Assembly: GCA_025349965.1 (NCBI GenBank)
Contig: CP075337.1
Coordinates: 1 to 32,000 of the forward strand
Length of the DNA stretch: 32,000 bases
DNA from: Candidatus Saccharimonadota bacterium
GTDB taxonomy: Bacteria > Patescibacteriota > Saccharimonadia > Saccharimonadales > Saccharimonadaceae
Direction: 5' to 3'
Of this stretch, positions 21,235 through 25,024 are shown one piece after another; within the stretch, counting starts at the first letter, position 1; every line of letters starts with the position of its first letter. Under the pieces are notes generated by a model, which was not told where the DNA came from, searched no databases, and saw only the letters and a list, made by a program, of their open reading frames with translations. The translations under genes and the position numbers were made by a program.

Positions 21235-22239
21235 ATGGCCTCCTACAAAGTACCCCAAGACGTCGAAGCAGATGATAAACTCATTGGCCCGTTTAGCTTT
21301 CGCCAGTTTATCTACCTGATCATTGTTGCGCTCGCGATTGCGCTTGCATGGGGATTGGCACAGCTTTTTATTGGACTTGCCGTTATTCCACTCCCGATCA
21401 TCCTTCTTTTTGGAGCACTCGCACTTCCGTTAAGGAAGGATCAACCGATGGAAATCTACCTCGCGGCAATGGTTTCCTTCTTTCTCAAGCCGCGAAAGCG
21501 CCTATGGGATCCTGAAGGGATGGAATCAACTATTGAGATTACTGCTCCAAAAACAGTGGAGGTAAGGCGCACAAAAGATTTATCCGAAGGTGAAGCGGTT
21601 GAGCGGTTGAGTTATCTTGCAAACCTTGTTGATACGCAAGGCTGGTCAATTAGGGGAGTACAGGGAGCTCAGAATATTGCCATGAACACAGATGTTGTTC
21701 TGGAAGCGCAAGGCGCAGAAGATGTGCTTGATACTAATACATCAATTGCCAATAACTTCAGCCAGATGATGCAGGCAAGTACGCAGCGCATGCGCGAAGA
21801 GGCGAAGGAGCGAATGATGGCAGCGACTTCAATCCCAGAACCTCAACAAACAGCACCGCTCGCACCCACTCCAACTATTGCCACTGTCCAAAATGCAGTC
21901 ACAGCAGCCTATAATACACCCGCCCAGCCCCAGCAGGTCACGCCAACTCAACCACAGCAAATCGAAGCACCTGAAGTCGTGCCAGTATTCAACCCGTATC
22001 CAAATATCCAGCAGTCGGTTATTCAGCCGTTAAGCGAAGAGGATAGAGTGTCGGTGCCAGCAGAAGCGCCAAAAGAAGAGCCAACTCCCGCAAGCACTAG
22101 CGAAACAGCGCCTTCTACTGATATAATAGAACTTGCAAATAACTCTGATTTATCAATTCAGACTATTGCTCATGAGGCAAATCGTCTAAAAAAGAAATCA
22201 GAGGAAGAATCTGACGAAGTCGTTATTTCGCTTAGATAA
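21235..22239 (+). CDS. PrgI/VirB3-like T4SS membrane protein with a C-terminal extension of about 220 aa
   Basis: The N-terminus YKVPQDVEADDKLIGPFSFRQFIYLIIVALAIALAWGL plus a second TM helix matches the PrgI-family signature as I remember it (VP-x-D...DK-x-x-G-x-x-x-x-RQ plus a TM hairpin). The rest is charged and P/Q/T-rich. Confidence 0.7.
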   Translation: MASYKVPQDVEADDKLIGPFSFRQFIYLIIVALAIALAWGLAQLFIGLAVIPLPIILLFGALALPLRKDQPMEIYLAAMVSFFLKPRKRLWDPEGMESTIEITAPKTVEVRRTKDLSEGEAVERLSYLANLVDTQGWSIRGVQGAQNIAMNTDVVLEAQGAEDVLDTNTSIANNFSQMMQASTQRMREEAKERMMAATSIPEPQQTAPLAPTPTIATVQNAVTAAYNTPAQPQQVTPTQPQQIEAPEVVPVFNPYPNIQQSVIQPLSEEDRVSVPAEAPKEEPTPASTSETAPSTDIIELANNSDLSIQTIAHEANRLKKKSEEESDEVVISLR

Positions 22240-22274: not shown

Positions 22275-23204
22275 ATGCAACCAGATAATTCACAGTATAA
22301 CCAACCGGGTGTTCCTGCAGGACAGCCCTCTATACCTGATATGACAGGTGGTGCTCCTTCATACCCACAACAGGGAGTTCCCCAGCAACCTCAAGCGTAC
22401 CCTCAGCAGGTAGTACAACCTCAACCAGTAGCACCTCAGCCTGTCGGTGCTCAAGGAGCAGCAACTACTGCTGAAGAAAAAGAGACACCTAAAAATCCTA
22501 ACTCTACTCAAAACTCATTACAGCTCTCTGAAATTCGCGACAGTATGGTTATTATGAATGACGGCTCTTTTCGCGCTGTCATTGCTTGTAAATCCATTAA
22601 CTTTGACCTCATGAGCTCACGCGAGAGAGAAGGGGTTGAGTACAGCTACCAGAACTTTATTAACTCTCTTAACTTTCCTGTTCAGATTCTCGTCCGCTCT
22701 CAGCGCGTAGATATCGGACCCTACATTGAGAAATTGGTTGACACACGCCGCTCTCAAGACAATATGCTTCTTGGTGTATTGATGGATGACTATATAAACT
22801 TTATTGACACCCTTGCAGAAGAAGCAAACATTATGGAGAAGTCATTCTACATCACCGTTCCGTTCTTTCCTGAAGGAGATTTACAGAACCTTAAGGCACA
22901 AGCTGTCGGCTTCTTTGGTAAGCTTTTTGCTAAGCCACAAAATACGGTTACAAAAATTGACTCTGCTGCATACCAAAAAGCCAAAGATGAAATCGCCAAC
23001 CGTGTAAATGTCGTACAGGCAGGGTTATTCCAGATTGGCGTACAAAGCGCACAGCTCGACACTCGGGCGCTTGGTGAACTTTATTACAGTTACTACAACC
23101 CGGACACAGCACTACGCCAGCCACTTGGTGATTTTGAAAATATCGCAACCACCTTTGTCAAAAAGGCAGAACCGACACAAGGTCCTACAGGAGGAGTTCA
23201 GTAA
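22275..23204 (+). CDS. Hypothetical protein with a P/Q-rich N-terminus and a domain patterned like a VirB4 N-terminal domain
   Basis: 309 aa, no TM helix and no NTP-binding motif. Its stop overlaps the VirB4 ATG (TAATG at 23202-23206). Its motif order runs parallel to the pre-ATPase region of the downstream VirB4 (hand comparison only). Confidence 0.7.
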   Translation: MQPDNSQYNQPGVPAGQPSIPDMTGGAPSYPQQGVPQQPQAYPQQVVQPQPVAPQPVGAQGAATTAEEKETPKNPNSTQNSLQLSEIRDSMVIMNDGSFRAVIACKSINFDLMSSREREGVEYSYQNFINSLNFPVQILVRSQRVDIGPYIEKLVDTRRSQDNMLLGVLMDDYINFIDTLAEEANIMEKSFYITVPFFPEGDLQNLKAQAVGFFGKLFAKPQNTVTKIDSAAYQKAKDEIANRVNVVQAGLFQIGVQSAQLDTRALGELYYSYYNPDTALRQPLGDFENIATTFVKKAEPTQGPTGGVQ

Positions 23205-25024
23205 TGGCTAAAAAACGAAGCGCTATTGATATTGCAGCCGAGCAACGCGCTCGCGAGCAAACCGAGGTAGAACAGGCGTTTCTTAAGGGTGTATCAACAC
23301 TCCGTGATTTAATTGCGCCGAGTAGCCTTGAAATCCATTCATCCCACTTTAGACTTGGTACAAAATACGGGCGAACGCTGTATGTGTACGGATATCCGCG
23401 CGAAATCTACACCGGCTGGCTTAGTTCGATTATTAACATTGACGAAGTACTCGACGTCAGCATGTATATTTATCCTGTTGAGAGTCAGGTGGTACTTAAT
23501 AACCTCCGCAAAAAGGTAACTCAGCTTGAAGCAAGTTACGCTATTAATAGTGAAAAGGGTAAGGTTCGCGACCCAGCGCTCGAAGCCGCCATTAGTGACG
23601 CGGAAGAACTTCGCGACAAGATCCAAATCGGAGCAGAGCGCTTTTTCCGTTTTGGGCTCTATGTCACACTTTGGGCCGACAGTATGGACGAGCTTAACTT
23701 TGTTCAACAAAAAATTGAAACTATTTTTGGTCAGCAAATGGTGTTTAGTAAGGTTGCGTCCTCACAGCAAGAACAGGGACTTAACAGTACTGTTCCGCAA
23801 ATGTCTGACGAGCTTCAGATTCGTCGCAACATGAACACCGGAGCTATCAGTACAAGCTTCCCGTTCACTAGCGCCGACCTTACAGATAACTCAGGTATTC
23901 TCTACGGTATTAATATGCATAATAATGGACTTGTTATCTTTGATCGCTACCGTCTTGAAAACGCAAATGCGGTCGTCTTCGCAAAGTCTGGTGCAGGTAA
24001 GTCATTCACAGTGAAACTTGAAGCACTCCGCAGTATGATGATGGGTACAGAAATTATTATCATTGACCCTGAAAACGAATACCAAAAACTTGCCGAAGCA
24101 GTAGGGGGCGCGTACGTCCGGCTCAGTCTCAACTCACAGGTGCGCATTAATCCATTCGACCTACCGCGTGTCATTGACAGTGACGAGGCTGATGATGCAC
24201 TACGAGCAAACCTTGTAACACTTCACGGGCTCTTCCGCCTCATGCTTGGTGGTTCGCAAACTACCGCTAATGGTTCGGTTATGTCCGGCCTCACCCCTGC
24301 GGAAGAGGCGGATCTTGACCAAGCGCTTATCGACACCTATGCACGCGTAGGAATTACAAGCGACCCGCTCACGCACAACTCACCACCGCCAACCATCGCC
24401 GATCTTTACGACACCCTTCTTCATATGGGCGGGAGCGGACCAGCCCTTGCACAGCGTCTTCGTAAGTACACGACTGGTACATTCGCTGGTATTTTCAGCC
24501 AGCAGTCAAACATTGATATCAATAACCCAATGGTTGTATTTAATATTCGCGACCTTGAAGACGAACTTCGCCCTGTTGCGATGTATATCGTCCTGAGCCA
24601 CATATGGAATATTACTCGCACCATTCAGAAGAAACGTATGCTTATCGTCGATGAAGCGTGGCAACTCATGAAATACGAAGACTCTGCTAACTTCCTCTTT
24701 AGCCTTGCAAAGCGTGCTCGTAAATATCACCTTGGACTCACAACCATCACACAAGATGTCGAGGACTTCATTAGCAGCAAGATGGGCCGTGCCATTGTCG
24801 CCAATAGCTCAATTCAACTCCTCTTAAAGCAATCTTCAAGTGCCGTTGATGTCCTCTCTGATGTATTTAAGCTTACTGAAGAAGAAAAAAAGCGTCTTTC
24901 AAACTTCCCAATTGGGCAAGGACTATTCTTTGCAGGACAAAGTCACGTTCATATCCAGATTCAAGCAAGCGCAACAGAACACCAACTTATCACTACTAAT
25001 CCGAATACTAAAGCCGGCTCGTAG
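23204..25024 (+). CDS. virB4: VirB4-family T4SS ATPase (TraE/TrsE/PrgJ-like)
   Basis: 606 aa. N-domain GTKYGRTLYVYGYPREIYTGWL, Walker A FAKSGAGKSF (about 23981-24010), IIIDPENEY, Walker B MLIVDEAW (about 24638-24661), and TTITQDVEDF. Confidence 0.88.
   Translation: MAKKRSAIDIAAEQRAREQTEVEQAFLKGVSTLRDLIAPSSLEIHSSHFRLGTKYGRTLYVYGYPREIYTGWLSSIINIDEVLDVSMYIYPVESQVVLNNLRKKVTQLEASYAINSEKGKVRDPALEAAISDAEELRDKIQIGAERFFRFGLYVTLWADSMDELNFVQQKIETIFGQQMVFSKVASSQQEQGLNSTVPQMSDELQIRRNMNTGAISTSFPFTSADLTDNSGILYGINMHNNGLVIFDRYRLENANAVVFAKSGAGKSFTVKLEALRSMMMGTEIIIIDPENEYQKLAEAVGGAYVRLSLNSQVRINPFDLPRVIDSDEADDALRANLVTLHGLFRLMLGGSQTTANGSVMSGLTPAEEADLDQALIDTYARVGITSDPLTHNSPPPTIADLYDTLLHMGGSGPALAQRLRKYTTGTFAGIFSQQSNIDINNPMVVFNIRDLEDELRPVAMYIVLSHIWNITRTIQKKRMLIVDEAWQLMKYEDSANFLFSLAKRARKYHLGLTTITQDVEDFISSKMGRAIVANSSIQLLLKQSSSAVDVLSDVFKLTEEEKKRLSNFPIGQGLFFAGQSHVHIQIQASATEHQLITTNPNTKAGS

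Follow-up and report, generated by a model that had tools for sequence, protein, structure and literature searches.

The stretch of DNA analysed here, the first 32,000 nucleotides (nt) of contig CP075337.1 from a Candidatus Saccharimonadota bacterium (assembly GCA_025349965.1; hereafter the window), carries a genuine, ATG-started open reading frame (ORF) at 22275-23204 on the forward strand, which encodes a protein of 309 amino acids (aa) between a PrgI/VirB3-like gene and virB4. VirB4 is the only motor that all type IV secretion systems (T4SSs) have in common, and according to published work Saccharibacteria need the T4SS to grow on host bacteria. A first-pass annotation, made from the letters of the window, had left the 309-aa protein as unknown. 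The features of the locus, given as coordinates, strand and description, with N1 and N2 standing for the two subdomains of the VirB4 N-terminal domain, are as follows.

21235-22239, +, PrgI/VirB3-like membrane protein, 334 aa, with a long C-terminal tail rich in proline, glutamine and threonine (P/Q/T); Pfam PF12666 PrgI, E 7e-12, residues 5-90
22275-22499, +, proline- and glutamine-rich (P/Q-rich) head of the TrsD-like protein (aa 1-75), predicted disordered; 41% P+Q, predicted local distance difference test (pLDDT) 53-69
22500-23153, +, globular domain of the TrsD-like protein (aa 76-293), matching N1, the first subdomain of the VirB4 N-terminal domain; Pfam PF26593 TraC-like
23189-23194, +, AGGAGG Shine-Dalgarno site for virB4, within the last codons of the TrsD-like ORF (Thr-Gly-Gly)
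23202-23206, +, TAATG stop/start overlap, a translational-coupling junction, read from the sequence
23204-25024, +, short VirB4 ATPase, 606 aa, without the N1 subdomain
23318-23926, +, VirB4 N2 subdomain (about aa 39-241)
23870-24997, +, VirB4 ATPase domain (aa 223-598)
23981-24004, +, VirB4 Walker A motif (aa 260-267, AKSGAGKS)

The 309-aa protein consists of two unlike parts. Proline and glutamine make up 41% of aa 1-75 against 11% of the remainder, and in the alignment of homologues this head differs in length and sequence among relatives and aligns poorly; it is missing from more distant homologs, which are 203-245 aa long. A search of the whole protein for a hydrophobic stretch found none (the top 19-residue Kyte-Doolittle mean is 0.89), and a search for Walker A or B motifs found neither, so that composition, hydropathy and motif content agree with the first-pass description of a P/Q-rich head of about 75 aa and a protein that lacks both a transmembrane helix and a Walker motif. 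The AlphaFold2 model, for which 106 diverse homologs were aligned, is confident at aa 80-290. Within this range, an insertion at aa 200-229 (22872-22961) is modelled poorly (pLDDT 61-79); it contains a GFFGKLF motif that is near-invariant in close relatives and not in distant ones, and may form a lineage-specific amphipathic or docking helix.

When the model was submitted to Foldseek, ranks 1-10 were all TrwK/VirB4 of plasmid R388. The fold is that of residues ~12-212 in the solved VirB4 structure, at a sequence identity to TrwK of 12%; searches of PDB sequences with the single sequence and with the family profile returned nothing useful. In TrwK the N-terminal domain covers residues 15-400 (PMC9259494), and the ORF therefore corresponds to its first half. 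The 606-aa VirB4 next to it aligns through residues 39-241 to TrwK 220-424, matches the crystallised VirB4 C-terminal domain 4AG5 through residues 223-598, and has a Walker B motif (MLIVDE) at aa 479. The same division appears when both proteins are placed on VirB4 profiles and on a PrgI-VirB4 protein from Vescimonas:

NF045975 VirB4 profile (894 positions): ORF 97-233, adjacent VirB4 286-893
TIGR00929 VirB4 profile (792 positions): ORF 19-151, adjacent VirB4 238-728
NF045971 CD1110 VirB4 profile (752 positions): ORF no match, adjacent VirB4 174-735
Vescimonas PrgI-VirB4 protein P0277 (942 aa): ORF family 126-314, adjacent VirB4 337-925

NF045975 is the NCBIfam profile of Mycoplasma-type VirB4; the matches of the ORF to NCBIfam profiles are weak but coherent. 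The Vescimonas protein is one chain, encoded on a Clostridia plasmid, in which a PrgI part, an ORF-family part and a VirB4 part follow one another. The profile of the ORF family aligns to its residues 126-314 with an hhalign probability of 97.3% (E 2.3e-11; hmmsearch E 2.7e-20), the ORF itself finds the protein by direct BLASTP (E 1.9e-9), and the adjacent VirB4 aligns to residues 337-925 (BLASTP E 7e-64). The three genes of the window map in order along this chain and are therefore collinear with one VirB3-VirB4 polypeptide; since the ORF and the adjacent VirB4 are together collinear with a single PrgI-VirB4 chain, we read the ORF as the N1 piece of a VirB4 that is split between N1 and N2. 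The first-pass suggestion that the globular part resembles a VirB4 N-terminal domain, encoded between VirB3 and VirB4, was thus borne out by the profile and Foldseek comparisons it had proposed. On TIGR00929, the VirB4/CagE/TrbE ATPase family, the ORF scores 12.4 bits against a cut-off of 643, and it has no Walker motifs; the protein is a fragment-equivalent of VirB4 and not a VirB4 ATPase.

Family databases place the ORF in the same company. PF26593.2 is listed for the 309-aa protein and for all 120 matches listed, of more than 7,700 homologs of similar length; the closest Atlas clusters are 100% PF26593 TraC-like, and the ORF family comprises 2,091 representative clusters. TraC is the F-type VirB4. 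A Pfam scan of the ORF, run on a copy of Pfam without PF26593, gave no match. Among NCBIfam models, the TrsD/TraD profile NF041427 is matched at 19.5 bits (E 7e-4) by residues 78-193 on profile positions 15-140 of 201, while a bona fide Staphylococcus aureus TraD scores 227.6 bits. The profile of the ORF family reaches S. aureus TraD (P0275) with an hhalign probability of 89% (E 2.3e-6, 177 columns), and hmmsearch finds it at E 2.1e-8 in two collinear stretches, with 23% identity over 137 residues. The genes are also laid out alike: on the S. aureus plasmid of pGO1/pSK41 type, traD (227 aa) lies directly upstream of a 670-aa "DUF87" VirB4, and S. aureus TraE matches VirB4 profiles only from positions 172-267 on (183-730 of 752 for one profile). 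The ORF, too, stands between a PrgI/VirB3-like gene and a VirB4 without the first N-terminal subdomain. Its kinship with the plasmid TrsD proteins is remote, and by the curated threshold it is not a member of their family. Separately, aa 96-203 weakly match the first 98 positions of PHROG 2666 (terminase large subunit; E 3.8e-5), a family that may include VirB4/HerA-like proteins with an N1-like start.

Much of this has a precedent in print. According to the TrsD passages of Quinonero-Coronel et al. (2025, Microb Genom, PMC12102498), TrsD is the most abundant T4SS component of Patescibacteria, with 2,272 homologs of which 1,664 are VirB4-associated; it has remote homology to the N-terminal portion of VirB4, and the paper counts the homolog of Ca. 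Southlakia epibionticum ML1 as essential. The T4SS locus SEML1_0006-0019 of that organism is described as essential by Wang et al. (2023, PMC10633639). The main text of Guglielmini et al. (2014) does not name TrsD, and the statement of remote homology rests on PMC12102498. Thus neither the gene family nor its genomic position nor its remote homology to VirB4 is new, and the arrangement in the window is real but ordinary.

At the junction, the TAA stop of the ORF (23202-23204) and the ATG of the 606-aa VirB4 gene (23204-25024) have base 23204 in common, just as the first-pass annotation had read from the TAATG. The AGGAGG precedes the virB4 ATG by 9 nt and falls within the codons of the C-terminal tail Thr-Gly-Gly-Val-Gln (23186-23204). 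Gly307 is invariant in close relatives while the rest of the tail varies, and its conservation probably reflects the RNA signal, that is the ribosome-binding site of virB4, and not the protein. Among 36 related trsD-virB4 pairs, the same -1 overlap occurs in 8 (our own pair counted in), an overlap of some kind in 15 and a gap of at most 30 nt in 28; 19 of the 36 junctions have GGAG or GAGG in the last 25 nt before virB4. Taken together, the junctions vary widely, the extremes being an overlap of 8 nt and gaps of more than 400 nt, and every virB4 starts at a codon of its own.

The split extends well beyond the window. The 309-aa protein is present in 40 of 41 related genomes, including 36/36 of good quality. 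Of 151 genomes drawn from across the phylum, 144 have VirB4, and at 36 of the 42 phylum-wide loci examined virB4 is immediately preceded on its own strand by a TrsD-like ORF. At order level the succession PrgI-like, TrsD-like, VirB4 (582-665 aa) is kept, second divergent T4SS copies included; the PrgI-like gene, whose product in the window has its hydrophobic maxima at residues 28-62, is retained upstream of the TrsD-like ORF in relatives. Neither among longer homologs nor among phylum loci with long VirB4 frames did we find a TrsD-VirB4 fusion in Patescibacteria: the long frames have Q/N/P-rich or C-terminal extensions, not TrsD domains. A metagenomic protein of 711 aa (P0121) is a collinear fusion of a PrgI-like (43% identical) and a TrsD-like part (57% identical) with no ATPase, as expected if N1 is the VirB3-proximal piece. 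A second database protein (P0122, 564 aa) reads from a TrsD-like domain into the VirB4 start and parts from the sequence of all its relatives twice, shortly ahead of the junction and at its own end; it looks like the product of assembly frameshifts rather than a natural fusion.

Several loci depart from the common pattern. In L050, L052 and L056 (genomes G189, G124 and G047), VirB4 carries a Q/N/P-rich low-complexity N-terminal extension of 190-330 aa. No TrsD-like ORF was found within ~2.2-2.5 kb upstream of virB4 in L052 and L056, whose genomes were not searched for N1 elsewhere, and in L050 the contig ends ~140 nt upstream of virB4. L051 (G122) has no adjacent TrsD-like ORF, its genome likewise not having been searched for N1 elsewhere; its VirB4 has a charged, E/K/A-rich N-terminal extension of ~106 aa and a C-terminal extension. 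Two further loci, L014 (G031:C3:60000-66000) and L015 (G039:C2:11500-17500), hold a second, divergent TrsD-VirB4 pair that is split alike, with a VirB4 37% identical and a TrsD-like protein of 203-221 aa without the P/Q head, which suggests a second T4SS or mobile element.

Given the homology to VirB4, the exact complementarity with the neighbour, the gene order PrgI - TrsD-like - VirB4 and the tight coupling of the cistrons, we consider it probable that the ORF is N1 (TrwK/VirB4 ~12-212) of a two-polypeptide VirB4 whose remainder, N2 plus ATPase, is the 606-aa VirB4, and that it belongs, as a distant member, to the TrsD/TraD group found in monoderm T4SSs of the MPF-FATA, pGO1 type. Four points weigh against this. 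The ORF stays at 19.5 bits where the curated cut-off of NF041427 is 200, which makes the link to TrsD one of remote homology only. Three phylum-level loci have a VirB4 without an adjacent TrsD-like gene. At order level N1 shares 47-54% identity, VirB4 74-76% and the PrgI-like protein 32-36%, so that the N1 piece evolves faster than VirB4, a difference that would fit some functional independence also. Finally, the association of the two polypeptides is something we infer from their complementarity and coupling only.

If they do associate, the overlapping stop and start would let the TrsD-like protein be made in step with VirB4, and it could dock non-covalently on N2 and so restore the full N-terminal domain of VirB4. 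In the R388 system, the central VirB4 subunits have VirB3 wrapped round this domain, and N-terminal domains mediate the entire interface of the VirB4 dimer (PMC9259494). The TrsD-like protein would then connect the ring of ATPases with its membrane anchor, PrgI/VirB3, and the P/Q-rich head together with the P/Q/T-rich tail of the PrgI-like protein may be flexible remnants of a former VirB3-VirB4 linker.

The first-pass annotation had compared the motif order of the protein with that of the pre-ATPase region in the neighbouring VirB4 and had suggested that, if the resemblance is real, a separate paralog of the VirB4 N-terminal domain could cap, regulate or extend the hexamer-to-membrane interface of VirB4; the protein would then be an extra copy beside a VirB4 whose own N-terminal domain is complete. 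It is true that this VirB4 retains ~220 pre-ATPase residues, and that the AlphaFold2 models of the two proteins agree in the succession of their elements (three strands, helix, strand, two helices, strand, helix, strand, helix), but this amounts to a weak resemblance between models in secondary-structure order. Sequence and profile similarity between the two were sought and not found: BLASTP of one protein against the other gave E 6.2, the ORF family profile against the adjacent VirB4 protein an hhalign probability of 0.26%, and the same profile against a profile of 43 VirB4 N-termini 0.17% (E 0.35). With these three tests null, paralogy of the ORF with the N region of its neighbour was rejected. 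Moreover, the two proteins map to different, adjacent parts both of TrwK (12-212 and 220-424) and of the single-chain PrgI-VirB4, and the adjacent VirB4 enters VirB4 profiles only from positions 174 of 752, 238 of 792 and 286 of 894. The ORF is thus the segment that its neighbour is without, and an additional copy is very unlikely; of the original interpretation, the homology to a VirB4 N-domain stands, while the extra copy gives way to a missing piece and the novelty of the arrangement falls away.

A virB4 recently broken by pseudogenization or a sequencing frameshift, or one joined into a single full-length VirB4 by programmed frameshifting, might be suspected from frames that overlap by one base and from P0122, which reads through into VirB4. 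That protein diverges just before the junction, however, as a frameshift error would, whereas the two-gene state is found in 36/42 phylum-wide loci and the same split recurs in S. aureus plasmids. With junctions so variable in geometry (8 nt of overlap at one extreme, gaps of over 400 nt at the other) and a separate start codon for each virB4, neither a recent break nor a conserved programmed frameshift is tenable, and we regard these explanations as exceedingly improbable. As a further alternative, the N1-fold protein could be a dissociable adaptor or regulator, setting when or where the VirB4 ring joins the PrgI/VirB6 membrane platform, or recruiting substrates, which would account for the persistence of the split throughout the phylum. 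The antiquity and stability of the split, the faster divergence of N1 and the lineage-specific disordered P/Q head speak for this, as does the fact that the TrsD passages of PMC12102498 assign the protein no function; yet tight translational coupling in many lineages suggests fixed co-production, and the neighbour lacks N1 altogether, so that simple complementation suffices for the data. We consider the adaptor role rather unlikely. A more elaborate version, decidedly unlikely in our view, is that N1 and N2 might, from their models, be ancient tandem duplicates, with the trsD/virB4 boundary a repeat boundary and the free N1 a dissociable adaptor that sets the number of VirB4 subunits tied to PrgI/VirB3. 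If true, the phylum-wide split would have a regulatory meaning and not be a neutral fission.

On the two-polypeptide reading, the "unknown" 309-aa protein becomes the first subdomain of the VirB4 motor, which removes a false mystery from the operon, and structural or biochemical work on VirB4 of Patescibacteria or of pGO1-type systems must include the TrsD-like partner. The family, its position and its VirB4 homology being published, the finding opens no new question.

Compared with known systems, the closest plasmid counterpart is the staphylococcal pair TrsD/TraD and TrsE/TraE of the MPF-FATA class, in which the gene of a small Walker-less protein likewise sits between those of a VirB3-like protein and of a short VirB4 that starts only with N2. 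A separate VirB4 N-domain in this place, of which the first-pass annotation knew no example, is therefore the TrsD/TraD + TrsE/TraE arrangement of pGO1-type plasmids, and for Patescibacteria it is described in PMC12102498. The TraD of pGO1/pSK41 type has no P/Q-rich head, whereas the ORF protein has one, and it belongs to a conjugative plasmid, whereas the system in the window is a chromosomal locus of a kind that the literature calls relaxase-less. In single-chain VirB4 proteins, such as TrwK of R388 (PDB 8RTD/7O41) and the PrgI-VirB4 fusions of Clostridia, one polypeptide holds what is divided here, where N1 is a separate polypeptide; relative to the N-terminal domain of these proteins, the ORF adds the disordered head and the poorly modelled insertion at ~200-229. 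From the TrsD of chromosomal T4SSs in Patescibacteria, as presented in the TrsD passages of PMC12102498, there is no substantive difference: the family is the same, as is its place directly upstream of virB4, and the host, with a single-contig genome of 0.78 Mb and relatives of 0.6-1.3 Mb, is the same kind of organism as the published TrsD carriers. Those passages do not say that the partner VirB4 lacks the N1 segment, and the mapping of the two proteins to TrwK 12-212 and 220-424 makes this complementarity explicit.
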